Shown in pieces: positions 17,750 through 47,752 of a stretch of DNA of 48,684 bases (within the stretch, counting starts at the first letter, position 1; every line of letters begins with the position of its first letter). The notes below the pieces were generated by a model that saw only the letters and a program-made list of their open reading frames with translations, made no database searches and was not told the origin of the DNA. The position numbers and the translations under genes were made by a program. Source of the stretch: a virus (Duplodnaviria > Heunggongvirae > Uroviricota > Caudoviricetes). The stretch covers positions 1 to 48,684 of the IMG/VR virus record IMGVR_UViG_3300020171_000017. One strand, given 5' to 3'.

Positions 17750-20050
17750 ATGAAGAAACTGCTAATTCATACCGATTCGCCGATGCTGCAGTCTGGCTTC
17801 GCGAGATGCGGTAGAGAACTTGCCAAACGATTTTACGAAAAAAAACATATAGATACACAGGGGAAAGAAGAGCGTGATTTTGAGATATCTTATGCCGCAT
17901 GGCATTATTTCAATAAACGTTACGATTTCCCCTATTTTTTATACCCGTTAAGTAAGGCTGATGGTGATGAACCGAAACAATTTAAAGTTATTCTTGGCGA
18001 CAGCCAGCCTGACTTAATCTTTTCGATTGGTGATCTTTGGAATTTCCAATCAATCTATGAAGTGGTCAGAGAGTATAAAGAAACTAAACCAGATGCCAAG
18101 TGGATTTTATGGCTGACGGTTGATGGTGAGCATCTACATCCTTCTTGGAAACAGGTACTTGATTATGCTGATGATGTGAATGTGTTTTCAAATTTCGCTA
18201 AAAATGAAATAAATTTATATTCCGGTATACAGGCTAATATTGTTTATCCTGGAGTGGATAGAGAAGTGTTTCATCCTATTAAAACAAATATTAAAGACAA
18301 TTCGTTGCCTTTTAATATAGGCCAAACGTTTTTAGTATTGAATGTAAATCAGAATACTGATCGTAAAAACATACCATTGACATTAGAAGGATTTAGAGAT
18401 TTCGCTAAAGACAAAGAAGATGTATTTATGATGTTAGTGACAGATCCTGAAGATCCGCATGGTTATGATTTATGGGATTTTATAAAATCTATGGGGTTGA
18501 ATAAAAAAGTAGCGATTACTCGCGAGGCAGGCCCTTTAAATGGCATGTCAGATGCTAAATTGAATTTGATGTATAACTTGGCTTCTGTAAGTATCAATAC
18601 AAGCATAGGTGAAGGGTTGTCGCTGCCTACATTAGAGGCTATGGCTGTCGGTACGCCTGTTCTCGCCACTGATTATGCCGCAGTACCTGAATTGATTAAT
18701 CAAGGCGGTGGTATAAAATTAAAAATCGTTGGGCATATGTATGGCTTTAATGGTATCAGGCGCGCGTTAGTCTCGAAAGAAGACGTTACCGCGCAATTAA
18801 ATATAATGTATCAGGATTATAAAACTGATAAGAAGTTGAAAAATTGGATATCAGAGAAATCACAGAAATTCGCCAGTATGTTGACCTGGGATAGAACTGC
18901 TAATATATTTTTTAAACGCATAGATAAAGTGTTAGAGAAAAAACAATTTAATTTTGTGCGTAATAGAGTAAAGATTAAAGAAATAAATCCTTTAATAGTT
19001 ATTCCAAGTTGGGGCACGCATTGCGGTATTGCGGAATATACTAAATCATTATTTGATGCAATTAGAGTAAGAGGCCAGCATGTAGTTACATTAGGCACGA
19101 ATGATTATGAAACGATAATTAAAATTGTTGAAGAAGGTAAATATAATGTTGTGAATATTGAACATGAATTTTCATTTTTTAAAGACAAAGAAGCGTTAAG
19201 TAAGATCCTTAAAAAACTTAACGAAATGAAGGTTAAGACAATTTTGACCATGCACTCATTAGTACCTGGTTTGGTGTCGCATAATGAATCGATTCTTACT
19301 AATGTCGATGAATTAATAGTGCATGCTGATTTTTTTAAACAAACATTAATGAAAAGGTTTGATGATAAAATTGGTAAATTTATTCCTGAAACTTGTAATA
19401 TTGAAGTTATACCTATGGGATGTGGTGATTTACACGAATATAATGTAGAAAAGATAAATGAAACAAAAAAACAATTGGGAATTGCAGAAAAAGCGCCTAT
19501 TATCGGTTCCTTCGGTTTTTTAAGAGATCAAAAAGGTTATCAAAACTTGCTTTTAGCAATTAAATTGTTGAAAGAAGAAGGTTTTAAAGATGTTTTAGCG
19601 TTATTGGTGTGTCCGCCGCACGAATTTGGATCGAAAACATATGATGAATCGTTTTTTAACTTTATTGAACGGCAAGGAATGAAAGATAATGTGCTGATTA
19701 TTAGAGAGTATCTTAAAGAAGAGAAATTACTCGATGTTTTACAGTGCGCCGATGTGTTTGTGCTGAATTATCAAGATCAACCGTCTGGCGGCGGTATATC
19801 TGCCGCTGTGAAGACGTTATTCCGCACGCAAAGACCGATTATTGTGAACGATGGGATCGCTTTTGCCGATTTAACGAATGAAGTGCTGAAGATTAAGAGT
19901 GTGTCGCCTTTGTCGTTGATCGAACCGATAAAAAATGTACTGGAAAATAAAGAATTAGCCGAGCAATTGGTTAAAAACGCGAATAAATATATTGAAAACA
20001 ATAATTGGGAGTGCGTGGCACAGAAACATTTAGATTTGTATGCGAAATAG
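17750..20050 (+). CDS. Two-domain GT-B (GT4-like) glycosyltransferase
   Basis: Domain 1: SGFARCGREL...EGLSLPTLEAMAVGTPVLATD. Domain 2: SWGTHCGIAEYT...GSFGFLRDQKG...CADVFVLNY. Confidence 0.9.
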   Translation: MKKLLIHTDSPMLQSGFARCGRELAKRFYEKKHIDTQGKEERDFEISYAAWHYFNKRYDFPYFLYPLSKADGDEPKQFKVILGDSQPDLIFSIGDLWNFQSIYEVVREYKETKPDAKWILWLTVDGEHLHPSWKQVLDYADDVNVFSNFAKNEINLYSGIQANIVYPGVDREVFHPIKTNIKDNSLPFNIGQTFLVLNVNQNTDRKNIPLTLEGFRDFAKDKEDVFMMLVTDPEDPHGYDLWDFIKSMGLNKKVAITREAGPLNGMSDAKLNLMYNLASVSINTSIGEGLSLPTLEAMAVGTPVLATDYAAVPELINQGGGIKLKIVGHMYGFNGIRRALVSKEDVTAQLNIMYQDYKTDKKLKNWISEKSQKFASMLTWDRTANIFFKRIDKVLEKKQFNFVRNRVKIKEINPLIVIPSWGTHCGIAEYTKSLFDAIRVRGQHVVTLGTNDYETIIKIVEEGKYNVVNIEHEFSFFKDKEALSKILKKLNEMKVKTILTMHSLVPGLVSHNESILTNVDELIVHADFFKQTLMKRFDDKIGKFIPETCNIEVIPMGCGDLHEYNVEKINETKKQLGIAEKAPIIGSFGFLRDQKGYQNLLLAIKLLKEEGFKDVLALLVCPPHEFGSKTYDESFFNFIERQGMKDNVLIIREYLKEEKLLDVLQCADVFVLNYQDQPSGGGISAAVKTLFRTQRPIIVNDGIAFADLTNEVLKIKSVSPLSLIEPIKNVLENKELAEQLVKNANKYIENNNWECVAQKHLDLYAK

Positions 20051-20053
20051 GAG

Positions 20054-21019
20054 ATGAAAATGGCTGAAAAATGTAAAATAGGTATTGGAGCACCAACCTA
20101 TAACTCGGTAAAACGGTTAGAGATGTTACTTTCTTCGCTGGAACTTTATGGGGTAGATAGTTATGACGCACGAGTTGTGATCTTGGATGATGGTTCGCCT
20201 GATCCAGAGATGAGAAAAGGTGTTGAAGAACTCGCACTTCGGTTTGGTGCAGATTTTATTCAGCATGAAACTAATAAAGGTATACCTGCGGCGTGGAATT
20301 CGTTGACGGATCACTGTGATTGTCAATATATGATTTTACTAAATGACGATATTGCGGTTTCTCAAAATTGGCTGAGAAACTTTGTTTATTTTATGGATAA
20401 TAATCCACAAATCGGCAATGTTGGGTTTTCTATTGTGCATGTTGATCCCGTTACGATGTTGCCTGACAAAAGATTTACGCCACCTGATGAAAATTCTCCA
20501 CCTGGTCGTTGTGGCTCACCCAATGGCTGTAGCTTTGGCTTCCGTAAAGAATTATGGAAAAAGATAATTAATCATGACAATAGCCGGGGGTTTTGGGAAA
20601 ATCTGATCAGTTTTTATGAGGAATTATCGTTTTCTTTTGAGATAGCGAAGATGGGTTTCCATTCTTTTCAGTTACCTACACCACTTTTAGAGCATTTAGG
20701 TAGTCGTACTTTTGGTGAAAATAAAGAACTATCTACAAGACAAATAGGTTCCTATATTACAAAAGAAGAATATTTGCGTAGAATGAAAGAAAATAAAAAT
20801 TTATGGATACCGTTTGAACAACACGAGGAATTAGCCTTAAAACAAAATTTAGCCTTACGGATGGATTATTCAAGAATGATGTTTTCGAAACATTGGGGTG
20901 CGGATGATTATCTTTCTTCTCCACAAGTATTTGTACATTCTAAATATGTAGATATATTGCCAAAAATAGAGGTTAAATGGTTGGATAAAGATGGGAATGA
21001 GAGAAAGCAGCTGATATGA
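20054..21019 (+). CDS. GT2 family glycosyltransferase
   Basis: IGAPTYN, VILDDGS, NKGIPAAWN, LLNDD. Confidence 0.9.
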   Translation: MKMAEKCKIGIGAPTYNSVKRLEMLLSSLELYGVDSYDARVVILDDGSPDPEMRKGVEELALRFGADFIQHETNKGIPAAWNSLTDHCDCQYMILLNDDIAVSQNWLRNFVYFMDNNPQIGNVGFSIVHVDPVTMLPDKRFTPPDENSPPGRCGSPNGCSFGFRKELWKKIINHDNSRGFWENLISFYEELSFSFEIAKMGFHSFQLPTPLLEHLGSRTFGENKELSTRQIGSYITKEEYLRRMKENKNLWIPFEQHEELALKQNLALRMDYSRMMFSKHWGADDYLSSPQVFVHSKYVDILPKIEVKWLDKDGNERKQLI

Positions 21020-21058
21020 ACAAGAAATCGCACCGCAATCTATGAGCGGTGCTCATAG

Positions 21059-21463
21059 TTAGGTGCGTTGATTCTGTATATATTTCTTAACAATATCTAA
21101 AGGAGCACCGCCAGTGGAAACAGCGAAATATCCAGATGACCAAAGTGTGTGTAAATGTCTTCCGAAATATGGGAAGGCGTACTTATGTTTTAGATATGAT
21201 GATGATTTTGCTTTTAATGCACCTATAACATTTCCAAGTGTATCTTGTGGAGTTAATTCTAGAAGAAAATGCACATGGTCTGTATCTCCGTTTATTTCAG
21301 TAATTTTTACTAACATTTTTTCTGCCATATTCGGCAGTACAGCGATCAAATCTTTAAGAATATCGTGAGAAAGACAGTGATACCTAAATTTAGTGACCCA
21401 GACAACGTGGTAAGTAAGAAAGAACTTACAATGTGCCTTACTTTTAAGGTCGTCATATCTCAT
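21059..21463 (-). CDS. tnpA: IS200/IS605 Y1 (HUH) transposase
   Basis: YHVVWVTKFR, DHVHFL (HUH), LWSSGYFAVSTG, YIQNQ (catalytic Tyr). Confidence 0.95.
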   Translation of the reverse strand: MRYDDLKSKAHCKFFLTYHVVWVTKFRYHCLSHDILKDLIAVLPNMAEKMLVKITEINGDTDHVHFLLELTPQDTLGNVIGALKAKSSSYLKHKYAFPYFGRHLHTLWSSGYFAVSTGGAPLDIVKKYIQNQRT

Positions 21464-22510
21464 AAATTAACTCCTATTTTGGATTTGTTATACCAGAAAG
21501 CAAATGTATGTGTTAAAGAAATGTTAACGCATAGAGAACTTTCTTCTTCAAAATATTATAAAAGTATTCCGTGCGTACTTGCGAAATCTCTTATTACAAA
21601 ATATCAGAAAAATAAAAAGATTAAGATGGTTAGTAAGTTAGTATTACCTATATGTGGAGATAAAGGGAAACAAGTAAAACTTGTTAATGATGGAGTTCGT
21701 ATTCCTGCTATTTTTAAAAAAATAATAATACCAATAATTTTTCCTAAACCGATTGTTGGACATATTAGACAAGTTGAGTTCTTCAAAAGAAACAAAAAAT
21801 GGTTTATGTCCTACTCATATAATACTCTTATTATAGCACAACAAACAGTATTAAGTTATCTTGGAGTTGATAGAAATGCTGTAGGTAATGTTGCTACGAT
21901 TGCAGACTCTGCTACTGGCAAAGTTATGGTACTCGGATGCGATGTATCAAAAATAACAGAAAATTTTCGTAACCGCAGAAAGAATTTACAAAGGAAAGGA
22001 GCAAATCATGCATTAATAAAACTCAAAAGAAAACAAAGTAATAAGATTAAAGATATTAACCACAAAGTTTCCCGTACCATTGTTGACTATGCCAAAGTAC
22101 ATCGTTCCGCTATTGTGTTAGAAGATTTAGGGAATATTTCTAAAAAAGGTAAAGCCAAGAGATATGTACAGAGATCTCAGTGGTCTTTTTATCAATTAGA
22201 AATGTTTCTAAAATACAAAGCGGCTTTGCTTGGCATACCACTTTACTATATTAATCCTAGGTACACTAGTCGGATATGCAGTAGATGTGGCAGCCTCAAC
22301 TTACCAAATGGTAAGTGCTATAAATGCACATCATGTGGACACTTTGACCATAGAGATGCCAACGCTGCTTTCAATATATCAGCACAGGCAGATTTTCTCT
22401 GTAGGAGAACAGCAGTAGACAGAGTTGCTGCTGTGGGGCATATTGGTATTCCCCTAAACCAGAGAGTTGAGGAAGCAATGCAACTGGAATCGTTGGGCGG
22501 TGCCCGATGA
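21431..22510 (+). CDS. tnpB: TnpB RNA-guided nuclease (compact)
   Basis: RuvC-I LGVD, RuvC-II VLEDL, TSRICSRC...CTSC zinc finger, RuvC-III RDANAA. ATG 21431 preferred (GTG 21365 is an alternative). Confidence 0.92.
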   Translation: MCLTFKVVISHKLTPILDLLYQKANVCVKEMLTHRELSSSKYYKSIPCVLAKSLITKYQKNKKIKMVSKLVLPICGDKGKQVKLVNDGVRIPAIFKKIIIPIIFPKPIVGHIRQVEFFKRNKKWFMSYSYNTLIIAQQTVLSYLGVDRNAVGNVATIADSATGKVMVLGCDVSKITENFRNRRKNLQRKGANHALIKLKRKQSNKIKDINHKVSRTIVDYAKVHRSAIVLEDLGNISKKGKAKRYVQRSQWSFYQLEMFLKYKAALLGIPLYYINPRYTSRICSRCGSLNLPNGKCYKCTSCGHFDHRDANAAFNISAQADFLCRRTAVDRVAAVGHIGIPLNQRVEEAMQLESLGGAR

Positions 22511-23130
22511 GTATCAAAATTGACCTGCATTTAAGAGAAGATATATTAGAGCATTTCCAAAATTTTGAATATTTCAACTGCAAAAATCCTGAAAGGCTAG
22601 ATTTTTCAAGAGTAGACAATATCACTGGCATCCAACAGGAGGCGTTCCTATTATATTGGATTTTAAAACAAATGCAAGAGCATGGTTGGGGGGTGGGGCT
22701 TGACATTGGTTGCGGCCAAGGTGCGCATTTCGGTTGTATCGGTTTAGATAAATATTACGGCAAGTCCCACCCCCAATACGGCGGTGAATATTTACCACAT
22801 ATTACATCCTTAGCAGAAAATATTACTTGTTTTAATGAAGGTACCTTCGGCTGGATCCTTGCGTCACATATTCTCGAACATGTTAATAATCCAGTAATTA
22901 CATTTCGTAGCTGGTTAAAACTGCTTCGTAAAAATGGCATTATAATTCTTTTGCAACCAGATGCAAATTTTGAGATTCCATGTCCGTGGGACCCAAGCCA
23001 TAAAAATTTTTACACACCAGAAGATTTCAGAAACAATTGCATATTGCCGAATCAAGATTTAATTCAAGAATTAGAATTTAATTCACTAAATAATAATTTC
23101 TCAATGAATTTTATCGGCAGGAGGATCTAA
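22507..23130 (+). CDS. Class I SAM-dependent methyltransferase
   Basis: LDIGCGQG, ASHILEH, LLRKNG. The current start codon lies within the IS right end. Confidence 0.88.
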   Translation: MSIKIDLHLREDILEHFQNFEYFNCKNPERLDFSRVDNITGIQQEAFLLYWILKQMQEHGWGVGLDIGCGQGAHFGCIGLDKYYGKSHPQYGGEYLPHITSLAENITCFNEGTFGWILASHILEHVNNPVITFRSWLKLLRKNGIIILLQPDANFEIPCPWDPSHKNFYTPEDFRNNCILPNQDLIQELEFNSLNNNFSMNFIGRRI

Positions 23131-23133
23131 AAC

Positions 23134-24153
23134 ATGAAGGTACTTATGCTAACTCACCCCGAACAAGATTACGGAGAATTTTTTCTCTTTTCTGGGCTAA
23201 TCAATTTATTAGGTGAAGATAATCTTATTGTATATCCACAAAAGTTATCATATATGGGTTTTGCGGATACTTCTTATTTATTGCATAATGAAAACAAACG
23301 GGGCATGACTTGTCCTGCTAGTTATGTAGTGCTAAAAAAGCTGCGTATATATCCGTTTGAAGAAATAGTAGATGAGATGTCTAGTATAGATTTAATTGTA
23401 TTAGCATCGCCGAGACATTATGCGATACATGCATTACAGTTTATAAAACAGATTTATGGCAATATACCGAAGCCATTAGCTTTTGTTGATGGCGAAGACG
23501 GCGACAATATACGAGAAGATTTAATTGAAGAATTTAAACCGCAATTTATATTTAAACGTGAATTGCGATACCCGATACCTAATATACATCCTTTACCATT
23601 TTCATCTTGTCTGCCTTATTTGCCTTATTTTGAAGAATTAAAATCTATGCCAAAGACACTTGATGTTTTCGCTTTATTCGGCAATACGCATCAAATACGA
23701 GTGGATGTAATACAGTTTTTATTAGAACAAAATCTGCCTAATTCATATATAGGCATAGATACAAACGCTTTACCTTGGCAAAATGAGAACAGATTTAAAA
23801 TACCGCCGTTAGTAGGGTATGAAGTATACTTAAGAAAGATGGCTTCGGCGAAGATAAACATAGTCTTGCGTGGTCATGGCCGAGATACAGTAAGATATTG
23901 GGAAGCGGCCAATGTAAATTCTCTTATGTTGATAAAAGATCCAGGGATTATTATCCCGCATCCGTATATCGATAAAGTGCATTGTGTTTATTTTGATGAA
24001 TTAAATGATTTACGAGAAAAGATAGATTATTACTTATCGCATGAAGATGAAAGGCTGGCGATAGCTAATAACTGCTTTGAACATACTATGAAATATCATA
24101 CAAATGAAAAAAGAGCCGAACAATTTTTAGAAACAATAAAAAATAACCTATAA
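23134..24153 (+). CDS. CgeB-like GT-B glycosyltransferase
   Basis: AKINIVLRGHG..TVRYWEAA, KIDYYLSHEDERLAIA...HT..KRAE. Confidence 0.8.
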   Translation: MKVLMLTHPEQDYGEFFLFSGLINLLGEDNLIVYPQKLSYMGFADTSYLLHNENKRGMTCPASYVVLKKLRIYPFEEIVDEMSSIDLIVLASPRHYAIHALQFIKQIYGNIPKPLAFVDGEDGDNIREDLIEEFKPQFIFKRELRYPIPNIHPLPFSSCLPYLPYFEELKSMPKTLDVFALFGNTHQIRVDVIQFLLEQNLPNSYIGIDTNALPWQNENRFKIPPLVGYEVYLRKMASAKINIVLRGHGRDTVRYWEAANVNSLMLIKDPGIIIPHPYIDKVHCVYFDELNDLREKIDYYLSHEDERLAIANNCFEHTMKYHTNEKRAEQFLETIKNNL

Positions 24154-24154: not shown

Positions 24155-25264
24155 ATGCGAATTTTGATAGCTAATACAGAGTTTGAAGACAGAGAATATT
24201 CATCAAGTGACAGTTTAATTCAGGCTTTTAAAGATCTTGGGCATGAAGTTATTACGTGTGGCGCGAAACTCGGTAATTTTGAAGGTGAAATGTTGAGTAA
24301 AAGAGATGTTAAAGTATACGATAGCAGGGTGCATCCTGAAATTTATTCTTATGATCATATTTTACAGCAATGTGATAAAGCGCCTGATCTGATTTTACAG
24401 GTAGATCCGCATTTTTATTTTATAGGAGAAAAACCTAAAGGCATAAAATGCGCATATTATATTGTTGATGTGCATCGTGGCGCCGAAGTATTTAGAAAAA
24501 TGGCTATAACAGGCAAGTTTGATTATGTGTTTATAGCGCAAAAATATTTTATGCCGCATTTTAAAAGAATAGGATTAAACTGTTATTGGTTACCGCGCGC
24601 GTATGATGACATATATATAAAAGAATATGAAGATGTTAATATTGAATGTGATATTTCGTTTTGCGGCGAAACAGGATTGCACAGCACTTTAAATACATTT
24701 AATGACATAGATGAGCAATTACAATTAACATATCATAAAGATGCGTATGAACTAATTTCGTCAGATTTACGTTATCGCAGTTGGGAAAATCATACTATGG
24801 AATATGCTGAACGCGCAGAAATATTTACTAGATTATCAAGAGATTTTAATTTAAGAATATATGCTAAATCTTATGGGTCAAAATACGCGCAAGCGATATG
24901 TCGAGGCAAAATAACTGTAAACCATAGTTTATGGAAAGATTCGGCCTTACGTAATTTTGAAGTATTAGCGTGCAATAGATTTTTAATTTCTGATTATATA
25001 CCTTTTCAAGAAAAGTTATTATTAGATAAAGTGCATTATAGGTCATATAATCAATCTTTTAGGCCTTTTTTACAGAATTTTGATTTAGAATATGAAGAAA
25101 TAAAAATGCTGGTTGATTATTATTTAAATAATGATGATGAACGAAATAAGATTATTCAGCAAGGTAATGAATTTGTAAAGAAGTATCATACTTTTAAACA
25201 TAGAGCACAAACTATTATCGATACTGTTAATGGAAAATGCGATGGATATATTAAACCCTATTGA
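24155..25264 (+). CDS. CgeB-like GT-B glycosyltransferase
   Basis: WLPRAYD, CDISFCG, RNFEVLAC, YYLNNDDERNKI...HTFKHRA. Confidence 0.85.
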   Translation: MRILIANTEFEDREYSSSDSLIQAFKDLGHEVITCGAKLGNFEGEMLSKRDVKVYDSRVHPEIYSYDHILQQCDKAPDLILQVDPHFYFIGEKPKGIKCAYYIVDVHRGAEVFRKMAITGKFDYVFIAQKYFMPHFKRIGLNCYWLPRAYDDIYIKEYEDVNIECDISFCGETGLHSTLNTFNDIDEQLQLTYHKDAYELISSDLRYRSWENHTMEYAERAEIFTRLSRDFNLRIYAKSYGSKYAQAICRGKITVNHSLWKDSALRNFEVLACNRFLISDYIPFQEKLLLDKVHYRSYNQSFRPFLQNFDLEYEEIKMLVDYYLNNDDERNKIIQQGNEFVKKYHTFKHRAQTIIDTVNGKCDGYIKPY

Positions 25265-26258
25265 TCCAATAAAAATAATTATGCATAAAGATAAAATTAT
25301 GCAGATTATTAACAACGAATTGCCGTTGCCTATTACCGTAGGTTTAGATATTTCTAATTATTGCAATAATGATTGTGTTTGGTGTTTATTTAAAGAGTAT
25401 CGTAAAAATCATTTATGCAATATGCCGAAAGATTTGATTTTTAAAACCCTTCTTGATTTAAAAAATGCGGGTGTTTTTGCGGTATGCCTTTCAGGCGGCG
25501 GTGAACCGACGATGGATGTGGTATGTAATGATACAATATTATACGCAAAAGAGGTAGGATTAGATATTTCTCTTAATACAAATGGCGTGTTACTTGATAC
25601 CATTAGTGATGATGCTATTAAGGCATTAACCTATCTTCGAGTAAGCCTTGATGCAGGTTCTAATGAAACGCATAATTTATTACATCAACCAAAAGAAAAA
25701 GATAGTTTCAATAAAATCATCTCTGTATTAAAAACCATTTGCGCTAAAAAATTAACGACTGTTGGTGTAGGATTTTTAGTACATCAATTAAATTGCCATG
25801 AAATTTTAGCTTTAACTAAAATTCTTGATGATATTGGCTGTGATTATTTGCAGGTTAGGCCGCTTAAAAATATTGTTTTAGATAAAGATAGTGAAGAAAA
25901 GTTTTTAGAACAACTTGTTTTGATTAAGCAGCAACTAAAGATAAAAGTTTTTGAAACTTTCACTAAAATGGAAGATACAATAAATAAGAAAGTTTGTTTT
26001 TCTAATTGTTATGTAAAATATCTTGTTTCTAATATAGGTCCTGATGGATATGTATATCCATGTTGTGAATTGCGCGGTGTTAAACCGATAGGCAATATAA
26101 AATATGACAGTTTTTTTGAAATATGGCATTCATCTAATCATAAAAATATTTTAAAGAATATTGATATAGTTAATTGTCCACCTTGTAAATATGCTAAAAC
26201 TAATGAAATAATAGAGAAATATATAGTAAATGATCCAATCCACAGAAATTTCATATAG
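25230..26258 (+). CDS. Radical SAM enzyme with SPASM/twitch domain
   Basis: CNNDCVWC (CxxxCxxC), SGGGEP, TNG, GPDGYVYPCC...IGNI...CPPC. Confidence 0.9.
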   Translation: MENAMDILNPIDPIKIIMHKDKIMQIINNELPLPITVGLDISNYCNNDCVWCLFKEYRKNHLCNMPKDLIFKTLLDLKNAGVFAVCLSGGGEPTMDVVCNDTILYAKEVGLDISLNTNGVLLDTISDDAIKALTYLRVSLDAGSNETHNLLHQPKEKDSFNKIISVLKTICAKKLTTVGVGFLVHQLNCHEILALTKILDDIGCDYLQVRPLKNIVLDKDSEEKFLEQLVLIKQQLKIKVFETFTKMEDTINKKVCFSNCYVKYLVSNIGPDGYVYPCCELRGVKPIGNIKYDSFFEIWHSSNHKNILKNIDIVNCPPCKYAKTNEIIEKYIVNDPIHRNFI

Positions 26259-38553: not shown

Positions 38554-38567
38554 ATGTCTAAAATTGA

Positions 38568-40131: not shown

Positions 40132-40862
40132 AAGTCTCAATTGTGGCCGCTATTTACAACAGCCATAAGGTTGTGATACGCCAGATCAGGCATTTTAAAC
40201 ATATGCGATTGCCTGATGATGTAGAGATAATATTTATGGATGACGGCAGTAATCCGCCGATTACATATAATACTTGGACTAAAAATTTTAATATTTACCG
40301 CATAGAAGAGAAACGCGCATGGACGCAAGGTTTAGCCAGAAATAAAGGCGCCGCGATAGCGAAAGGTGAGTTCTTATTATTTACCGATATCGATCATATT
40401 ATAACCAGAGAAGCGATAGAAGCGGTACGTAATTTTAGGTTTGATAAAATGGTGTTTCGAAGAAAGTTTGGCATATTTGATAGAAGAGGAAATATCTTAA
40501 GTGATAAAGCAAAATTAGATGTCTTTGGTGTTAGTCCTAAATATAAACGCAGAGGATATCAAGCAGGTGTGCATGGCAACACTTACGCGATACGCAGAAC
40601 GGTTTTTTTTGAGTTAGGCGGTTATAACCCAAAATACTGCGAAAATGAATTTCATGTTGGCGGCAAGTATATGTCAGAAGAAAGAAATTTTAATATCAGG
40701 TGGCAGAATAGAGTTGAAAGAAAAGAAAGTAAACCTGCCGCAGGCGGGCCTGATATTTATGTATATCCAATCGGCAGGTTTCATAGTTTAGGTGATGAAA
40801 ATCCAGGCGGTTTGTTTCATAATTTAAGCAGAGAGCAGGTGCCGCAGCCATGCAAGATTTGA
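40128..40862 (+). CDS. GT2 family glycosyltransferase
   Basis: VSIVAAIYN, MDDGS, ARNKGA, FTDIDH. TTG 40128 by TTGA coupling. Confidence 0.85.
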   Translation: MKVSIVAAIYNSHKVVIRQIRHFKHMRLPDDVEIIFMDDGSNPPITYNTWTKNFNIYRIEEKRAWTQGLARNKGAAIAKGEFLLFTDIDHIITREAIEAVRNFRFDKMVFRRKFGIFDRRGNILSDKAKLDVFGVSPKYKRRGYQAGVHGNTYAIRRTVFFELGGYNPKYCENEFHVGGKYMSEERNFNIRWQNRVERKESKPAAGGPDIYVYPIGRFHSLGDENPGGLFHNLSREQVPQPCKI

Positions 40863-41548
40863 GCGTGATTTTTTATACTTCAAACTATATCACAGATTTT
40901 TTCGCTGAAAACGTAAGAAAGAATTTGTTGTGGTGTATTGGCGATATGCCATTAATAAGCGTATCGCAAAAACCGATGGATTTCGGCAGAAATATTTGTG
41001 TTGGCGATATAGGCAGGTCGCATTTGAATATATACCGCCAGATATTAATCGGCGCGAAAGCCGCTGAGACTGAATATGTGGCTTTAGCTGAAGATGATAT
41101 TTTTTATACGCCTGGGCATTTCACTTTCAGGCCTACGTCTAAAGAAGTATTTGCTTATAACTACAATAAATGGGGCCTTTATACTTGGACTTCACCGCCG
41201 ATCTATTCTTATTTAGGCAATCTTGTGGTTAATCAATTAATAGCATCTAGAAACTATCTTGTTGATGCATTAGAAGAAAGGTTTAATAAATATCCCGACG
41301 AAAGTAAAATCGATTTAAGCTGTTGGAAAGACCCAGGCAGGCGAGAGAATAGGTTAGGCGTTACTGAAAGAAAAACAGAACGGTTTGATTCGCCTGAACC
41401 AAGTATTGTGTTTTCACATGAAGACGCTTTTGGTTATGCTAATTTAGGCAAAAATAAAGCGCACGGCGCGGTTAGAAAAGATTATTTAGAACCTTGGGGC
41501 TACGCTTCTAATATGATGAAGTTATATAAAGGCAGAAATGCATCTTAA
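40850..41548 (+). CDS. Divergent GT-A fold glycosyltransferase-like protein
   Basis: SVIFYT...LISVSQKP...YRQILIG...EYVALAEDDIFY (DxD-like). Paralog of the C-domain of 43019-44743. Confidence 0.65.
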   Translation: MQDLSVIFYTSNYITDFFAENVRKNLLWCIGDMPLISVSQKPMDFGRNICVGDIGRSHLNIYRQILIGAKAAETEYVALAEDDIFYTPGHFTFRPTSKEVFAYNYNKWGLYTWTSPPIYSYLGNLVVNQLIASRNYLVDALEERFNKYPDESKIDLSCWKDPGRRENRLGVTERKTERFDSPEPSIVFSHEDAFGYANLGKNKAHGAVRKDYLEPWGYASNMMKLYKGRNAS

Positions 41549-42014
41549 AATACAGCCATTACCTATCACACACATGTCTGTTCTTATTGATATAGTAAGA
41601 AGGACCAACGGCGATGTTCTTGAGATGGGGATTGGAATAGGCAGTACGCCTGTATTGCATGAACTTTGCCGAGGAAGAAAGTTAGTATCTTATGACAGTT
41701 CTAAAGAATATGTCGATGCTTTTATGAGTTTAGCGAGTGATTGGCATGAATTAAGTTTTGTTGAAGATTGGGCTAAAATAGCTATCGAAAAACCTTGGAG
41801 TATCGCATTTATCGATCATGCACCTTGTGGCCGTAGAAGGTATGATATAGCCAGGCTTAAAGATTTTGCTGATTACGTTATTGTTCACGATACTGAACAA
41901 GATGTAGATAGGTTTTATCGTTATAAAGGCGCGTTTTCTTTATATAGATACCGCCGTGATTATACATTTGCTAAACCTTTTACAACTGTCTTAAGTAATC
42001 GCCATGCCTTATAA
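41538..42014 (+). CDS. Class I SAM methyltransferase-like protein
   Basis: VLEMGIGIGST, LVSYD, IAFIDH, VIVHD. Confidence 0.7.
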   Translation: MHLKIQPLPITHMSVLIDIVRRTNGDVLEMGIGIGSTPVLHELCRGRKLVSYDSSKEYVDAFMSLASDWHELSFVEDWAKIAIEKPWSIAFIDHAPCGRRRYDIARLKDFADYVIVHDTEQDVDRFYRYKGAFSLYRYRRDYTFAKPFTTVLSNRHAL

Positions 42015-42243
42015 AAACCGTGAGCCTGTTTCTGAAAAAATTATGGATATTAAAGATTACGAAGGGCATCATTCTATTTGCCAATTTTTAAGAGATATTT
42101 ACCATAAAACCAATGATGAAGAGATAAAACTAAAATGCCGTGTGGCGGTAGCAATGGCAAAAGCGATGAACGAAAAGCTAAAATGGTATAAAGCAAAAGA
42201 TTTGGGGATACCTGTTAGCACTATGCCTGATTTAGAAGAATGA
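42004..42243 (+). CDS. Hypothetical protein
   Basis: 79-aa helical ORF overlapping both neighbours. Confidence 0.6.
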   Translation: MPYKNREPVSEKIMDIKDYEGHHSICQFLRDIYHKTNDEEIKLKCRVAVAMAKAMNEKLKWYKAKDLGIPVSTMPDLEE

Positions 42244-43028
42244 TTGTGGATTGTTTTCCATTTTTCAATGAGTTGGATGTTTTAGAAATTAGATTAAATA
42301 GTTTAGCGCCTTATGTCGATAGATTTGTTTTAACAGAATGCAATGTTACTCATAGCGGTAACCAAAAACCATTGTTCTTTGCGGAAAATAAAGAAAGGTT
42401 TAAAAATTTTAATATCATGCATTTAATCTGTCCGCCACCTGAAACAGATATGAAATCTATACCTGGCACATTAAACAATAACGCTTGGCGGTTAGAGCAT
42501 CGTGATAGAGAGTTTTTAATGAATGGCATAAAAGATTTAGATCAAGACGATATAATTTTATTATCTGATGCTGATGAAATACCTGATTTAACACAATATA
42601 AAAAAGGTACGGAAGGTGCATTTAAACAAAAGATTTATTATTATTACCTTAACTGTTATGCAGGCATAAAGAATTGGAAAGGTACTATCGCTATAAAGAA
42701 GAAGAATATAAAAACTATGAACCATACAAGAAACCATAGAGCGATGTATCAGACTATCGTGGTTGGTGGCTGGCATTTTTCAACTATGGGAAATGTAGAA
42801 CAGATTAAATACAAAATTGAATCGGTCGCACATCAAGAATTGAATACAGATGCGTTTAAAGATAACATTGAAATGAATAGAAAAGACTTAATAGATCCTT
42901 ATGGTGGCTGGAGACCAGGTCGTCCGCCAAATTGGCAAGGTAGAAATGTAAAGTTATCGATTGAAATGCCTGATGGTCCAAAATGGTTATTAGAAAATAA
43001 AGAAAGGTATCCAAAATTATGGATTTGA
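42240..43028 (+). CDS. GT17 (beta-1,4-GlcNAc transferase, MGAT3-like) glycosyltransferase
   Basis: DCFPFFNELDVLEIRL...VDRFVLTE...THSG..KP, LSDADEIP, GWHFS. Confidence 0.88.
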   Translation: MIVDCFPFFNELDVLEIRLNSLAPYVDRFVLTECNVTHSGNQKPLFFAENKERFKNFNIMHLICPPPETDMKSIPGTLNNNAWRLEHRDREFLMNGIKDLDQDDIILLSDADEIPDLTQYKKGTEGAFKQKIYYYYLNCYAGIKNWKGTIAIKKKNIKTMNHTRNHRAMYQTIVVGGWHFSTMGNVEQIKYKIESVAHQELNTDAFKDNIEMNRKDLIDPYGGWRPGRPPNWQGRNVKLSIEMPDGPKWLLENKERYPKLWI

Positions 43029-44743
43029 GTATCTTAATTCCAGCACGAAACGAGATTTTCTTGGCTAAAACTATAGAAAATATCCTTGAAAATATTCAAG
43101 GCGATACTGAAGTGATCGCTGTATGCGATGGTTATTGGCCAAAACCTGAAATTAAAGACCATAAAAGAGTGACGCTCGTGCATTATACCGAATCTATCGG
43201 CCAACGTGCAGCGACTAATGTTGCGGCTAAAATATCACGAGCTAAATATTTACTGAAATGCGATGCGCACTGTGCTTTTGCTAAAGGCTTTGATGTGCAG
43301 ATGCTGGCCGATATGCAAGATGATTTTACAATGGTGCCAATTATGCGTAATCTGCACGCTTTCGATTGGGTTTGTGCTGATGGACATAGAAGATATCAAG
43401 GGCCTAGCGGTGTATGCAAAGAATGTGGTAAAGAAACGAAAATGGATGTAGTCTGGATTGCAAAGAATAATCCACAGAGCACTTCTTATTGTTTTGATCC
43501 AGAACCCCATTTCCAGTATTTCAATGAATTTAAAAATAGACCGGAATCTAAAGGAGACCTGACCGAGACAATGTCTTTACAAGGCTCTTGTTTTATGTGT
43601 ACCCGCAATAAATATTTTGAATTGGGATTATGCAGTGAAGAATTCGGTAGCTGGGGGTCTCAAGGGATTGAAGTGGCATGTCGTACATGGCTTTCTGGGG
43701 GAAGAGTAATAGTTAATCATAAAACATTTTATGCTCATATGTTTAGAACGCAAGGACAGGATTTTGGTTTTCCATATGTTTTATCTGGTAAACAAGTAGT
43801 ACATGCTAAAAAATCAGCAAAAGATTTATTTTTTAATAATAAATGGGAAAAGCAAGTAAAACCTTTATCGTGGTTAATTGAAAAATTCTGGCCGATACCA
43901 GGGTGGAATCAAGAAGATTTAGATGTGATTAGAAAGATAGATTTGCCTTTTAAATCTGTTCTTCAAGATCAAATTGATATGAATTATAATAAAGAAATTA
44001 TTATGCCTAACGAAATGCCTTCTTTTGCAGTAAATATTTCTACTTCTATAAAAGGGCTAGTTTATTACACCGACAACAATTGTGAAGAAAAAATTTTATC
44101 CGCTTGCCAAAATCAATTAAAAGTTTGCTGTAATGGCAATCAGTTAGTATCTGTATCTTTGCAACCGATAAATTTTGGAGAGAATATAGTGTTGAATGAA
44201 AAAAGAAGTGCATTGACTATGTTTAAACAAATTTTGGCAGGTCTTGAGAAGATAAAATCAGAAGTTGTATTCCTAGTTGAGCATGATGTTTTATATTCAA
44301 AAGAACATTTTGATTTTATGCCTTTTAGAAAAGATATTATTTATTATAATGAAAATATCTGGTTTTTAAGGATAAGCGACGGACATGCCATGCATTATGA
44401 CTGTAAACAAACATCAGGTTTATGCGCGTATCGCGATATTTTAATAAAACATTATAAAGAAAGGGTAAATTTAGTAGAAAAAGAAGGTTACAGTAACAGA
44501 ATAGGTTATGAACCGATGACGCATAACAGAATTAAATGGAATAATATTTATAAAGCTGAAGGTTGGAAATCTTTAGTGCCTAATATAGATATTCGGCATG
44601 GTAAAAATCTTTCTGGTGCTAGGTGGAGAAAAGATCAATATAGAAATCAGCATTTATTGATAAATTGGACTGAAAGTGATAATGGAGTGCCTGGATGGGG
44701 AAATAATAAAAATATTTTTATTGAATTGACAAAGGAAATATAA
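43019..44743 (+). CDS. Bifunctional GT2 + GT-A-like glycosyltransferase
   Basis: N-domain SILIPARNE...KCDAH. C-domain LVYYT...LVSVSLQP...FKQILAG...VFLVEHDVLY. Confidence 0.85.
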   Translation: MDLSILIPARNEIFLAKTIENILENIQGDTEVIAVCDGYWPKPEIKDHKRVTLVHYTESIGQRAATNVAAKISRAKYLLKCDAHCAFAKGFDVQMLADMQDDFTMVPIMRNLHAFDWVCADGHRRYQGPSGVCKECGKETKMDVVWIAKNNPQSTSYCFDPEPHFQYFNEFKNRPESKGDLTETMSLQGSCFMCTRNKYFELGLCSEEFGSWGSQGIEVACRTWLSGGRVIVNHKTFYAHMFRTQGQDFGFPYVLSGKQVVHAKKSAKDLFFNNKWEKQVKPLSWLIEKFWPIPGWNQEDLDVIRKIDLPFKSVLQDQIDMNYNKEIIMPNEMPSFAVNISTSIKGLVYYTDNNCEEKILSACQNQLKVCCNGNQLVSVSLQPINFGENIVLNEKRSALTMFKQILAGLEKIKSEVVFLVEHDVLYSKEHFDFMPFRKDIIYYNENIWFLRISDGHAMHYDCKQTSGLCAYRDILIKHYKERVNLVEKEGYSNRIGYEPMTHNRIKWNNIYKAEGWKSLVPNIDIRHGKNLSGARWRKDQYRNQHLLINWTESDNGVPGWGNNKNIFIELTKEI

Positions 44744-47700
44744 ATGGCAATAACCAAAGATACAGACAAACAATTATATCGGGATAAGCTCGGCGAAGAT
44801 GAAGTTATTATTGGCGATGAAGTAGACTCTACGAAGTTTAAGAATAAAATTAAATTTACAAAGTGGAACAAAGAAGAAAGTCTTACTATTGACTGCTCTT
44901 CTATTCCAGGCGAGCCAATCCTTGATGTAGACAAACTAAAGAGCAAAGATTTAACCAACGCCGAAAACTTTTATTATCAGAAGTTCGACGAGAACACCTA
45001 TAAGTTCGGGTTAATACTAAAAGAAAAACCATCTGCTGACAAGTTAGTTACCATCGACGGAGTTGAATATTATCAGTGGCAGTTTCAGTTAGAGGGGTGG
45101 GGGAATTTTGATTTCTTTTATCAAGAACCTTGGGTAAATGTAGAAGAATTCATACAAGACGGTGAAATTTGGGTAAAAAATTTAGATGTTGTTGACCATG
45201 CGCAAGTACGTCCTTTAAAAGTACAGGGTAGTTATGCTATTTATAGTAAGATAAGAAAAGAAGGTAAAACAAATAAATTTGGTCAGTTTTATGGTGTAAA
45301 AGTATTAGATTCTAATAATAAATTGTTGTGTCAAATTAATCTTCAAATAATAGATGGTATTTATATAATTAATATTCCACAATCTATATTTAATTATGAT
45401 ACACAATATCCATTACGATTTAATGACGAGTTTGGCAGAACAAGTCAAGGTAGTGGTAGCGATGGTTGGAGCGCAAATCGTATTGCAGGAAGTATTTATA
45501 ATTTATCAGTAGATGGAAGTGTATCAGCAATTCATTATTACGGTGGAATGACGGTAGGAGCGGGTAATGTTAAGGGAATTATATATGATGATAATGCAGG
45601 AACTCCTAATAATTTAAAAGGAGTTACAGATATTCTGAATTTACCTGATACCACTAAAGGATGGTACGCTTTAACATTCGCATCTCCTATTTCTCTTTCT
45701 GCTGGTGATTATTGGTTGATGTTAGTAACTGATACTAATAACAACAGTATTTCGGCAGATTATTCAGGAAGTCCTGCATCCCATTGTAGATATACGGCAA
45801 GTACTGCGGGGAATTATACTTCACCTCCTAACCCTTGTCCTAGTACTACCCAAATAAATGGTTATGAATTATCAGTCCACGCCACCTACACCCCAAGCGG
45901 GGGTTCAGCATCTGAAAGCCCAAGTTTATCACCGTCAATTTCGCCGAGTATTAGTATAAGTCCAAGTTTGTCGCCATCAGTATCACCTAGTATTAGTATA
46001 AGTCCAAGTTTGTCGCCATCAGTATCACCTAGTATTAGTATAAGTCCAAGTGCGTCGCCATCAATTTCGCCAAGTATTAGTATAAGTCCAAGTTTGTCGC
46101 CATCAGCATCACTGAGTATTTCGCCAAGCGCGTCACCGTCGATATCACCTAGTATTTCACCTTCGATAAGTCCAAGTATCAGTATAAGTCCAAGTTTGTC
46201 GCCTTCGGCATCACCAAGTATTTCACCAAGCGCGTCGCCGTCGATATCACCTAGTATTTCGCCTTCAATAAGTCCTAGTATCAGTATAAGTCCAAGTTTG
46301 TCGCCTTCGGCATCACCAAGTATTTCACCAAGTGCGTCGCCCTCAGTAAGTCCAAGTATATCACCAAGTGTATCGCCTTCGATAAGTCCGAGTATCAGTA
46401 TAAGTCCAAGTTTGTCGCCTTCGGCATCACCAAGTATTTCACCAAGTGCGTCGCCCTCAGTAAGTCCAAGTATATCACCAAGTGTATCGCCTTCGATAAG
46501 TCCGAGTATCAGTATAAGTCCGAGTTTGTCGCCTTCAGTATCACCGAGTATTTCACCGAGCTTAAGCCCTTCGGCATCACCAAGTATATCTATAAGTCCG
46601 AGCTTATCGCCAAGTGCATCGCCGTCAATATCACCAAGCATTTCACCTAGCATAAGCCCATCGATTTCACCTAGTATATCCATAAGCCCAAGCTTATCAC
46701 CATCGGTATCACCAAGTATTTCGCCAAGTGCGTCGCCGTCAGTAAGTCCGAGCATTTCGCCTAGCGCGTCACCTTCGATATCGCCTAGTATATCCATAAG
46801 TCCAAGCTTGTCGCCATCCATATCGCCAAGCATTTCGCCTAGCGCGTCACCTTCAGTACCAATTGGATCACTAAGTTTATCGCCTTCAATTAGTCCAAGT
46901 TTATCGCCAAGCATATCACCGAGTGTGTCGCCATCAATATCACCTAGTATTAGCATAAGCTCTAGTTTATCACCATCAATATCGCCTAGCGCATCACCTT
47001 CAATTTCACCAAGCATATCGCCAAGCGTATCGCCTAGTATATCCATAAGTCCGAGCTTATCGCCATCAATATCACCAAGTATTTCACCTAGCGCGTCGCC
47101 GTCGGTATCGCCAAGCATTTCACCGAGTATAAGTCCATCGATTTCACCTAGTATATCTATAAGCCCAAGTATTTCACCTAGCACATCACCATCGATTTCA
47201 CCGAGTATTTCGCCTAGCATAAGCCCATCGATTTCACCTAGTATATCCATAAGTCCAAGCTTATCACCATCAATTTCGCCAAGCATTTCACCTAGTATAA
47301 GTCCTTCAGCATCACCAAGTATATCCATAAGCCCAAGTTTATCACCATCAATATCTCCGAGTATTTCGCCAAGTAAATCGCCATCAATATCACCTAGCAT
47401 TTCGCCAAGTATAAGTCAGTCACTTTCACCGTCACTTTCACCTAGCATTTCGCCTAGCGCATCGCCATCCATTTCGCCTAGCATATCGCCTAGCATTTCA
47501 CCTAGTATATCCATAAGTCCAAGCTTATCACCATCAGTATCACCTAGCATATCACCAAGTGCATCGCCTTCGATATCACCTAGTATTAGTATAAGCCCGA
47601 GTTTATCACCTAGTGTATCGCCAAGTATAAGTCCATCTGTTTCTCCTAGTGCGGTTTATTTAGTGCGATTAAAATCAGCGACCGAACAAACAAGGTTATT

Positions 47701-47752
47701 ATCAGCGACCGAACAAACAAGGTTATTAAATTCTAATATGTTAGATAGTTGA
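44744..47752 (+). CDS. Large putative virion protein with globular N-terminal domains and a Ser-Pro-rich mucin-like tract
   Basis: About 390 aa of globular sequence, including a beta-sandwich-like segment (GWYALTFASPISLSAGDYWL), then 578 aa of (SPS[I/L/V/A])n and a 33-aa tail. Confidence 0.85.
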   Translation: MAITKDTDKQLYRDKLGEDEVIIGDEVDSTKFKNKIKFTKWNKEESLTIDCSSIPGEPILDVDKLKSKDLTNAENFYYQKFDENTYKFGLILKEKPSADKLVTIDGVEYYQWQFQLEGWGNFDFFYQEPWVNVEEFIQDGEIWVKNLDVVDHAQVRPLKVQGSYAIYSKIRKEGKTNKFGQFYGVKVLDSNNKLLCQINLQIIDGIYIINIPQSIFNYDTQYPLRFNDEFGRTSQGSGSDGWSANRIAGSIYNLSVDGSVSAIHYYGGMTVGAGNVKGIIYDDNAGTPNNLKGVTDILNLPDTTKGWYALTFASPISLSAGDYWLMLVTDTNNNSISADYSGSPASHCRYTASTAGNYTSPPNPCPSTTQINGYELSVHATYTPSGGSASESPSLSPSISPSISISPSLSPSVSPSISISPSLSPSVSPSISISPSASPSISPSISISPSLSPSASLSISPSASPSISPSISPSISPSISISPSLSPSASPSISPSASPSISPSISPSISPSISISPSLSPSASPSISPSASPSVSPSISPSVSPSISPSISISPSLSPSASPSISPSASPSVSPSISPSVSPSISPSISISPSLSPSVSPSISPSLSPSASPSISISPSLSPSASPSISPSISPSISPSISPSISISPSLSPSVSPSISPSASPSVSPSISPSASPSISPSISISPSLSPSISPSISPSASPSVPIGSLSLSPSISPSLSPSISPSVSPSISPSISISSSLSPSISPSASPSISPSISPSVSPSISISPSLSPSISPSISPSASPSVSPSISPSISPSISPSISISPSISPSTSPSISPSISPSISPSISPSISISPSLSPSISPSISPSISPSASPSISISPSLSPSISPSISPSKSPSISPSISPSISQSLSPSLSPSISPSASPSISPSISPSISPSISISPSLSPSVSPSISPSASPSISPSISISPSLSPSVSPSISPSVSPSAVYLVRLKSATEQTRLLSATEQTRLLNSNMLDS
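45917..47650 (+). repeat. Coding repeat (Ser-Pro-Ser-X)n, residues 392-969
   Basis: 4-residue period with occasional SI inserts and one interruption (VPIG). All six Ser codons are used. Confidence 0.97.
46277..46504 (+). repeat. Perfect 114-nt tandem duplication within the SP tract
   Basis: 46277-46390 equals 46391-46504 by direct comparison. Confidence 0.9.
47675..47728 (+). repeat. Perfect 27-nt tandem duplication (SATEQTRLL x2)
   Basis: TCAGCGACCGAACAAACAAGGTTATTA at 47675-47701 and 47702-47728. Confidence 0.95.

Follow-up and report, generated by a model that had tools for sequence, protein, structure and literature searches.

The window analysed here, the first 48.7 kb (48,684 nucleotides) of a 135.5-kb viral contig (G000; IMG/VR record IMGVR_UViG_3300020171_000017), contains genes for about 24 glycan enzymes, closely packed on one strand, at positions 17750-44743. 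This block of about 27 kb, referred to below as the island, is located downstream of the major capsid protein gene, and its enzymes account for 19.9% of the contig. Comparison with related contigs confirmed that the block is a real phage feature which is conserved across the lineage and lies inside the head module. The island is probably a phage-owned glycan factory of the late operon, glycosylating the virion proteins of the phage itself in the host cytoplasm.

Gene content of the island

The inventory of the original prediction, which had been made from the window sequence, was largely reproduced. Its 11 glycosyltransferase (GT) genes with 13 domains were supportable by Pfam, NCBIfam, Atlas structure matches and pairwise comparison, which includes a paralogue match. 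The four short-chain dehydrogenases/reductases (SDRs), the UDP-galactopyranose mutase (Glf)-like enzyme, the radical S-adenosylmethionine (SAM) enzyme and the ATP-grasp ligase were all matched by Pfam or NCBIfam. Of seven methyltransferase genes proposed, six had Pfam support (starting at 22507, 26259, 29723, 32304, 33125 and 39523), and the seventh could not be confirmed. All genes of the island are on the plus strand. Their junctions are mostly gaps of 0-14 bp or short overlaps (≤43 bp by open reading frame [ORF] calls); one junction is broken by an insertion sequence (IS), and the sole sizeable internal gap is 153 bp long (38415-38567).

The first gene of the island (17750-20050) encodes a 766-amino-acid (aa) enzyme with two GT-B modules and two PF00534 matches above the cut-off, referred to as the double GT4. 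It is followed by a GT2 glycosyltransferase (20054-21019; PF00535, 59 bits), a class I SAM methyltransferase (22507-23130; PF13489 and PF08241) and two CgeB-like GTs (23134-24153 and 24155-25264; PF13524 Glyco_trans_1_2, 53 and 68 bits). The GT2, the methyltransferase and the first of the CgeB-like GTs are core genes of the island. An IS200/IS605-type insertion (21020-22510) with a tnpB gene (21365-22510; PF07282 Cas12f1-like_TNB, 77 bits) separates the GT2 gene from the methyltransferase gene. In the relatives, the insertion is missing from this point and the two genes abut each other.

The next genes encode a radical SAM/SPASM enzyme (25230-26258; PF04055 and PF13186), a methyltransferase (26259-26849; PF08241/PF13649) and a PylC-like ATP-grasp ligase (26846-27877; PF21360 and NCBIfam PRK12767). 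Two SDR genes starting at 27874 and 28812 (27874-29765; PF01370, 147 and 64 bits) are NDP-hexose 4,6-dehydratase-like and epimerase/reductase-like, respectively. The best NCBIfam match within this pair was dTDP-glucose 4,6-dehydratase at 150 bits, which is below the cut-off. In the stretch 29723-34174, Pfam matches identified a methyltransferase (29723), a GT2 with a weak match (30731; 18.8 bits, under the cut-off), a second GT2 (31495) and two more methyltransferases (32304 and 33125), the latter with a weak second methyltransferase-like match in its N-terminal half. The Glf-like flavoenzyme (34171-35346; PF03275 GLF, 106 bits, and NAD_binding_8) is followed by a GalE/GDP-fucose-synthase-like SDR that belongs to the core (35361-36350; PF01370, 149 bits, and NCBIfam). 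A GDP-mannose 4,6-dehydratase (GMD) is encoded at 37449-38414 (PF16363, 379 bits; TIGR01472 gmd, 373 bits). Between the last two genes lies an HNH homing endonuclease with FCS-type zinc fingers (36364-37452; phrog_1271, E 1.4e-22; weak PF13392 and PF06467), a selfish insert that falls in the 36001-38000 bin, the lowest in GC content of the window (26.5%). This endonuclease and the TnpB element had been omitted from the original prediction.

The 153-bp gap contains a terminator-like hairpin (38517-38547; a 12-bp stem followed by TTTTTTT), and a promoter-like site is located at 38411-38439. Scans for sigma-70 promoters and intrinsic terminators over 15.5-48.7 kb gave site counts not above those of shuffled sequences, and among the sites scanned only the hairpin looks meaningful. 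Downstream of the gap, the stretch 38568-41548 encodes a GT2 (38568), a Methyltransf_24 enzyme (39523) and another GT2 (40110), all three matched by Pfam, and a divergent GT-A enzyme (40850). The 40850 product had no Pfam match; it is paralogous to the C-terminal domain of the 43019 product (29% identity, E 5e-19), has a DXD-like motif and resembles viral "glycosyltransferase" clusters in the Atlas. Two small ORFs of 158 and 79 aa (41538-42243) without a significant family match, a GT17-like glycosyltransferase (42240-43028; PF04724, 91 bits) and a 574-aa double GT-A enzyme (43019-44743) complete the island. The double GT-A enzyme has PF00535 at its N-terminus and a GT-A-like C-terminal half by Atlas structure, in which residues ~300-574 matched viral GT-A models with TM-scores of 0.73-0.87 (normalised by the matched model).

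Fixed position and variable content in relatives

The island was compared with 11 IMG/VR loci found via the capsid protein and with further ENA, NCBI, Logan and IMG/VR contigs found via the 766-aa enzyme; one of the relatives, G001 (175 kb), is complete. The gene order of prohead protease, ~129-aa gene, capsid gene, ~125-aa gene and double GT4 was kept in every relative covering those positions, and it holds down to 39% GT identity. The size of the island ranged from two enzymes (L010) through 10.6 kb (L041) to 31.6 kb (G001). In L010, merely the double GT4 and one SDR of the 35361 type are present ahead of the conserved post-island gene.

The recurring core consists of the double GT4, the 20054-type GT2, the 23134-type CgeB-like GT, a methyltransferase, the 35361-type SDR and a GMD-like SDR. 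Homologues of the GT2 follow the double GT4 in G001, L009, L020-L022, L036 and L040-L042, those of the 22507 methyltransferase were found in G001, L021, L036 and L040, and those of the CgeB-like GT in nearly all relatives. The islands of L021 and L033 add several radical SAM enzymes (two of them B12-dependent) and transketolase-like subunits. In the 65%-identical relative L033 (L033:10983-20993; JBGGGX010000014.1), four radical SAM enzymes, one of them B12-binding, are accompanied by split transketolase/E1-like subunits and short-chain dehydrogenases, and a fifth, B12-binding radical SAM enzyme runs off the locus end. These additions suggest branched or C-methylated sugars.

Inteins and HNH genes are scattered through the islands of the relatives. 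Intein/Hint Pfam matches were found in the GT2 and the GMD-like SDR of L020 (L020:12313-14595 and 16448-18571) and in the large terminase of L022 (L022:824-4039). To judge by their size, inserts of ~360 aa in the 35361-type SDRs of L010 (13756-15837) and L022 (15546-17687) are presumably inteins as well. At the corresponding places, the window has HNH or IS elements that are free-standing.

GC content and GC skew run unbroken from the flanks through the block, and identical junctions recur in many contigs from many samples. A misassembled host lipopolysaccharide (LPS) or capsule locus, which had been named beforehand as a way in which the prediction could fail, was therefore rejected. The fixed address of the island combined with the turnover of its content resembles a surface-antigen locus. 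The content of the island changes between relatives but the head genes on either side of it do not, which suggests that the surface of the particle may be under diversifying selection; adsorption to non-hosts, glycan-recognising defences and grazers are possible selective agents.

The lead enzyme

The two PF00534 stretches of the double GT4 scored 48.5 and 41.8 bits. Its family comprises 43 clusters with 39-100% identity, all metagenomic, and two more matches were merely 23-25% identical. The AlphaFold2 (AF2) model (pLDDT 88.6) has two GT-B modules. The top PDB match was the chlorovirus NY2A glycosyltransferase 3oy2 (TM-score 0.78 on target), closely followed by PimB', MshA, BshA and many other GT4 enzymes. 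In module 1, the EX7E motif (E288-x7-E296) is invariant in 41 family members, and this module looks catalytic. In module 2, the EX7E position is taken by an invariant G680-G-G...K688 (manual placement), and a GxxRxxKG-like nucleotide-binding motif is retained. Lacking EX7E, module 2 may either catalyse in a non-canonical way or bind the acceptor as a partner of module 1, in the manner of GtfB with GtfA.

A tblastn search with the double GT4 against 50,697 phage records returned 10 matches. Homologues of module 1 (25-26% identity over ~395 aa) were located in the head modules of two cultured phages. In Microcystis phage Mae-JY09, the order is capsid gene, hypothetical, GT4, hypothetical, SDR, hypothetical and adaptor; in Synechococcus phage S-CBS4, it is portal, hypothetical, GT4, GT2 and methyltransferase. 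The capsid protein of Mae-JY09 and its small neighbour showed no sequence similarity to their G000 counterparts (the S-CBS4 capsid was outside this comparison). This independent head-gene position of GT4 homologues appears to be the strongest comparative argument for a virion-related role. No publication was found on the function of these two head-module cassettes.

Candidate acceptors

As the original prediction had stated, the cluster ends at a serine (Ser)-Pro tract protein, and the SPSX tract is real in the translation. The 1002-aa product (44744-47752) is a candidate glycan acceptor or virion fibre, as its translation, its AF2 model and its homologues at the ends of other islands suggest. 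Residues 1-391 form two carbohydrate-binding-type beta-sandwiches, residues 392-969 form an SPS[ILVA] tract (578 aa), and the C-terminus carries a conserved RLKSATEQTRL x2 motif. The DNA repeats of the tract are diverged (65-90% matches at periods of 36-204 nt). The two beta-sandwiches are those of the AF2 model (pLDDT 91.5). Residues 174-384 best matched the capsid-bound chain 9jwb_Z of cyanophage A4 (Z 16.0, rmsd 2.5, 143 residues). By our chain assignment, this is probably gp25, the auxiliary cement protein of carbohydrate-binding-module (CBM) type of that phage (PMC12002296). In residues 1-237, the fold is similar to the carbohydrate-binding supersandwich known from mutarotases and glycoside hydrolases.

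The family of the N-terminal module had 1864 matches, mostly stand-alone phage proteins of ~400 aa. In an unrelated phage, one member is encoded between portal and capsid without a GT in the neighbourhood. A poly-Ser extension was present in just one of the module's 150 best representatives, and that one ends a double-GT4 island. The island of G001 is closed by a 1957-aa homologue with poly-Ser linkers and the same C-terminal ATEQTRL x2 motif, and that of L027 by a 567-aa poly-Ser-linker homologue followed by an 872-aa poly-Ser protein. In L010, a 519-aa poly-Ser protein, in which a discoidin-like domain can be read by eye, is encoded between portal and protease and not at the island end.

The proposal that relatives keep the GT cluster together with a Ser/Thr (S/T)- and Pro-rich gene thus held in part: the double GT4 always followed the capsid gene, but Ser-rich proteins were found alongside the island in only four of six relatives. 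A Ser-tract protein as the constant closer of the island was rejected, since L022/L032 and L041 end with other fibre-like proteins, an 857-aa Gly/Thr-rich one in the case of L041. In L041, a 97-aa ORF of SD(L/I)NR(I/V) repeats (L041:20313-20603) lies between this protein and the post-island gene. In L022/L032, two large post-island proteins (L032:10001-13219) have signal-peptide-like and lipoprotein-like (…LFVAGC) N-termini, which is unusual for proteins of a virion module.

In G000, S/T-rich windows were found in just two proteins, both of the head module. The second of these is a 1195-aa LamG protein (7169-10756), whose S/T-rich stretch near residue 150 (SSSPDGTTTSPSLTASS...) is a possible second acceptor. 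The proteins constantly encoded beside the double GT4 are the capsid protein and two small ones. The putative tube protein (ending ...MFTTKY) has no S/T-rich C-terminal extension. A terminal-Ser or [DE]-Ser acceptor tag was considered and dropped, as the capsid and tube proteins lack such a tag; the last two residues are DS in the 1002-aa protein but DA in its G001 homologue.

Proposed pathway and alternative functions

No phage-encoded nucleotidyltransferase was found, so the phage would have to use host GDP-mannose, UDP-galactose and UDP- or dTDP-glucose. In the pathway that we propose, these host nucleoside diphosphate (NDP)-sugars would be taken up as substrates and converted to 6-deoxyhexoses by the GDP-mannose dehydratase and the SDRs. 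The second 4,6-dehydratase/reductase pair and Glf (galactofuranose) would convert further sugars, and the radical SAM enzyme and the ATP-grasp ligase may tailor them further. The double GT4 would probably start the glycan on the acceptor, 10 further GT genes would lengthen it, and the six methyltransferases would cap it. An export step would be needless, because virions assemble in the cytoplasm and exit by lysis.

If virion proteins are glycosylated, the Ser tracts are likely to be among the acceptors: the 578-aa SPSX tract of the lectin-like 1002-aa protein would be the first candidate, perhaps joined by the S/T-rich part of the LamG protein. Alternative acceptors would be the capsid protein or its small conserved neighbours. 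A more specific picture can be offered only tentatively, at somewhat less than even probability. In this picture, a groundwater/freshwater siphophage lineage carries a hypervariable "virion serotype" locus, of up to about 20% of the genome, that builds methylated deoxysugar/galactofuranose heteroglycans on mucin-like Ser-tract fibres and other head proteins, together forming a glycocalyx.

Several observations weigh against virion glycosylation. LPS and capsule pathways likewise use soluble or peripheral GT2 and GT4 enzymes, and the O-antigen and capsule GTs acting on lipid-linked intermediates are usually of that kind. The contig encodes a tyrosine recombinase, which makes a temperate lifestyle with host conversion possible, and the contig is only ~77% complete (CheckV). 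The weak NCBIfam best matches of the cluster are exopolysaccharide (EPS) and LPS enzymes, far below the cut-off. Among the 10 tblastn matches of the double GT4, there was no Mycobacterium phage, and the capsid protein (ending ...TTNVVEQD) has no S/T-rich C-terminal extension of the mycobacteriophage kind. No Ser tract was found in the visible head modules of L022/L032 (~30 kb) and L041 (~22 kb); therefore, Ser tracts cannot be the universal acceptor. The beta-sandwich fold of residues 174-384 is also found in tail-tip and baseplate proteins, and it is only by its fold and the place of its gene that the 1002-aa protein is predicted to be in the virion. That the glycan would be carried by a protein is itself predicted from genes.

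Some of these observations would also fit remodelling of the host envelope. In that case, the soluble GTs would build or alter a lipid-linked polysaccharide of the host (O-antigen, capsule, EPS or teichoic-type) via the initiator, carrier and exporter of the host, serving superinfection exclusion, lysogenic conversion or the prevention of progeny sticking to debris. NDP-sugar tailoring enzymes (GMD, 4,6-dehydratases, Glf) together with several GT2/GT4 transferases are typical of surface-polysaccharide loci, peripheral GTs do not need a transmembrane helix, and GT sets of cyanophages have been read in this way (PMC12801897). The EPS/LPS matches and the recombinase point in the same direction.

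The membrane searches argue against this function. A Kyte-Doolittle scan found no signal peptide or transmembrane helix in the cluster, in agreement with the original prediction; the sole hit was the Rossmann N-terminus of one SDR. The predicted lack of exporter and initiator genes in the window was extended to the whole 135.5-kb contig. Among all ORFs of at least 60 aa, there was no polytopic membrane protein, and the maximum in any G000 protein was three hydrophobic segments, in a protein of just 101 aa. Accordingly, no initiating phosphoglycosyl transferase, flippase, polymerase or ABC permease was found on this ~77% complete contig. In addition, the island forms part of the virion operon, between capsid and connector genes, and is not a separate moron. 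Its position is kept across the lineage and recurs in Mae-JY09, whose capsid protein is unrelated, and in S-CBS4. Conversion genes co-expressed with late genes would act only shortly before lysis, and the use of 20% of a genome for host conversion would be unprecedented. Host-envelope remodelling is therefore regarded as unlikely, although it is the best of the alternatives. As to the predicted cytoplasmic virion-protein acceptors, the solubility of the enzymes, the lack of an exporter and the head-module position support them, but missing transmembrane helices cannot prove protein acceptors.

A free cytoplasmic product is a much weaker candidate. This would be either an oligo- or polysaccharide with many methyl groups or a small molecule that carries sugar, and it would act in the cell or be packaged non-covalently. 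Mycobacterial methylmannose and methylglucose polysaccharides provide a comparison, and the system of G000 is likewise all-soluble and rich in methyltransferases. The methylmannose-polysaccharide mannosyltransferase 7qsg was among the many similar structural matches of the double GT4, but it is one generic GT4 match among hundreds. The relatives add natural-product-like chemistry (B12-radical SAM enzymes and transketolase-like subunits). No phage role is known for such a product, and the fixed post-capsid position and the recurring large fibre or Ser-tract end proteins would be left unexplained.

Sugar hypermodification of DNA is the least credible function. The predicted lack of a DNA hydroxymethylase was borne out in the rest of the contig: PF00303 (thymidylate-synthase-type hydroxymethylase) and PF00145 (C5 DNA methylase) were absent from G000 and, as G000 is incomplete, also from the complete relative G001, with working positive controls, and Tet_JBP (PF12851) gave no match in a search without a positive control. 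The methyltransferases of the cluster are small-molecule class I types (Methyltransf_11/23/24/25) and not DNA methylases; the remaining ones encoded by the contig are of the ordinary Dam and N6/N4 kinds. GT clusters that make DNA glycans are known from phages, some of them near structural genes (bioRxiv 10.1101/2023.12.21.572611), and the island of G000 has many methyltransferases. Nevertheless, a decoration of hydroxymethylated phage bases by GTs to evade restriction, known from T-even phages and from the MT/5mYOX/GT clusters that Pyle et al. described, is very unlikely here. Known DNA glycans are mono- to trisaccharides and would not call for 11 GTs, deoxysugar pathways or Glf; those of Pyle et al. 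depend on a methyltransferase and 5mYOX. Moreover, the island lies in the virion operon, on the opposite strand to the replication genes found and at least 24 kb away from them. What probability remains after these three alternatives and virion glycosylation falls to something else.

Setting of the island in the contig

The contig has a GC content of 34% and contains no N. Every large ORF from 0 to 69 kb of G000 is on the plus strand. This half carries the prohead protease and capsid genes, and the tail genes are further downstream, in a stretch with a 1078-aa ORF (52280-55516). The other half, on the minus strand, encodes replication and repair functions, a beta clamp, the Dam and N6/N4 DNA methylases and the tyrosine recombinase. 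The capsid-to-GT junction was present in sequencing runs labelled groundwater metagenome, and no RNA run was listed among the runs containing it. Two runs contained it completely and may be the source samples. Genome matches of the TnpB gene were only 28-34% identical (Methanomassiliicoccus and an Oligoflexales metagenome-assembled genome), and no host could be assigned from them.

The left anchor of the head module is the prohead serine protease (14171-15748; PF04586 Peptidase_S78, phrog_80), which is kept in all relatives. It is followed by a conserved 129-aa protein (15766-16155), a scaffold or decoration candidate with weak family matches and 42-85% identity in all relatives. The PDB sequence search with this protein was empty, and its gene is duplicated in L010. 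The major capsid protein (16173-17198) matched phrog_3990 major head protein (E 1.3e-38), and its best tblastn matches were annotated capsid proteins of actinophages. A conserved 125-aa protein (17341-17718) lies between the capsid gene and the double GT4 in every relative covering this position; it had no Pfam, PHROG or PDB match. On the other side, a conserved 171-aa gene (47900-48415) closes the island, with homologues after the island in G001, L010 and L041. The block had been described as co-oriented between the capsid gene and a putative adaptor. Its position and the identity of the capsid gene stood, but the 171-aa product had no Pfam or PHROG match, and its naming as an adaptor is a matter of conserved synteny. 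PHROG searches were also empty for the N-terminal module of the 1002-aa protein and for six genes downstream of the putative adaptor.

Immediately upstream of the protease, the head module encodes a 619-aa protein (12294-14153) that has an AAA+ ATPase domain and, in its N-terminal part, weak similarity to ATP-dependent DNA ligases; the protein is conserved in the relatives. An AAA ATPase and a beta clamp have also been noted in cluster O mycobacteriophages (PMC4351075). Tandem 117-aa paralogues (6445-6798 and 6807-7160), which are 66% identical and share the C-terminus YAKQIRKG, are placed between the portal candidate and the LamG protein.

The genome of G000 is rich in selfish elements. Two 338-aa RRXRR-family (HNH-like) proteins are encoded on the minus strand (G000:C1:90316-91335 and 111638-112657), and a RuvB-like ATPase (G000:C1:119994-121463) bears a Hint/homing-endonuclease insert. 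An exact 235-bp direct repeat is located at G000:C1:131643-131877 and 135295-135529, and the contig stops precisely where the second copy does; a repeat family or a break in the assembly may explain it.

Significance and comparison with known systems

Phage virion glycosylation has so far been proven only in a few mycobacteriophages with three or four genes. If the proposed function of the island is true, it is a much larger version of that strategy, and some environmental phages decorate their own particles with glycans that equal those of giant viruses or bacterial O-antigens in elaborateness and that vary between close relatives. This would change the view of phage surfaces in adsorption, stability, recognition by immune systems and predators, and the design of phage therapy. 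The island would then also supply glycoengineering with a large set of soluble GTs that work without export, together with sugar methyltransferases and deoxysugar enzymes.

In mycobacteriophages, capsid and tail-tube subunits carry glycans that form a shield (Freeman 2023 as cited in PMC12619734 and PMC11256854). The statement that mycobacteriophage GTs lie in the structural operon applies to cluster O, in which the Corndog genes for an O-methyltransferase, for two GTs and for a GlcNAc-transferase are flanked by those of the portal and the protease (gp35-38; PMC4351075), but not to cluster F1 (Che8 and Rita), whose GTs are near the 3' end of the genome (PMC11256854). The island of G000 shares with these systems phage-encoded soluble GTs, an O-methyltransferase and the lack of an exporter, and with Corndog the location of glycan genes inside the virion structural operon. 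It differs in being about six times larger (~24 enzymes and 27 kb versus 3-4 genes), in having sugar-nucleotide tailoring, and in its lead double GT4, which has no detectable homologue there. The acceptors in mycobacteriophages are the C-termini of capsid and tail-tube subunits, whereas the capsid protein of G000 lacks such an extension.

Autonomous glycosylation is also known from the capsid N-glycans of chlorovirus PBCV-1 (A064R and A111/114R) and the fibril glycans of Mimivirus (PMC4691112, PMC7826918). The description of the island as being of giant-virus scale is apt with regard to the complexity of the pathway, but as many as 13 GTs have already been published for a cyanomyovirus, where they were read as related to the cell wall or to DNA (PMC12801897). 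G000 has a gene set of giant-virus type (GMD, SDRs, Glf, two double-domain GTs and six methyltransferases), and the systems have in common GMD-type sugar-nucleotide tailoring, multidomain GTs, sugar methyltransferases and independence of host ER/Golgi or export. The glycans of giant viruses carry methylated deoxysugars, and the genes of the island predict the same here. The chlorovirus 3oy2 match was barely above those of generic GT4 enzymes and provides no homology-based link between the pathways. Giant viruses are eukaryotic nucleocytoplasmic large DNA viruses with double-jelly-roll capsids, whereas G000 is an HK97-class tailed phage.

Two cellular systems provide functional analogies. The Ser-rich-repeat adhesins of Gram-positive bacteria are O-glycosylated in the cytoplasm by the GT4 enzyme GtfA with its non-catalytic GT-B partner GtfB and then by further soluble GTs. 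The double GT4 may combine a similar arrangement in one polypeptide, a canonical GT4 module and a second module without EX7E; this likeness is one of function only, and GtfA/GtfB models were not among the 16 NCBIfam hits. Export by an accessory Sec system (SecA2/SecY2) is unsupported, as no polytopic membrane protein is encoded on the contig. The spore surface of Bacillus carries crust glycans made by CgeB/Sps proteins, and the collagen-like repeats of BclA carry rhamnose and methylated anthrose. As proposed for the island, soluble GTs (among them the CgeB family PF13524), methyltransferases and deoxysugar pathways coat an assembly of proteins inside the cell; export is not involved, and a repeat-tract protein is the scaffold. 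Spore glycosylation is cellular and not viral, and only the Pfam family PF13524 is shared.

The closest parallels in cultured phages are the cassettes of Mae-JY09 and S-CBS4. The head-module GT4 and SDR of Mae-JY09 mirror the layout of the minimal island of L010, and the head-module GT4 of S-CBS4 is accompanied by a GT2 and a methyltransferase. Both differ from the island in having a single GT4 module and only 2-3 enzymes. These small homologous cassettes in cultured cyanophages make the idea testable and are possible test systems for it.

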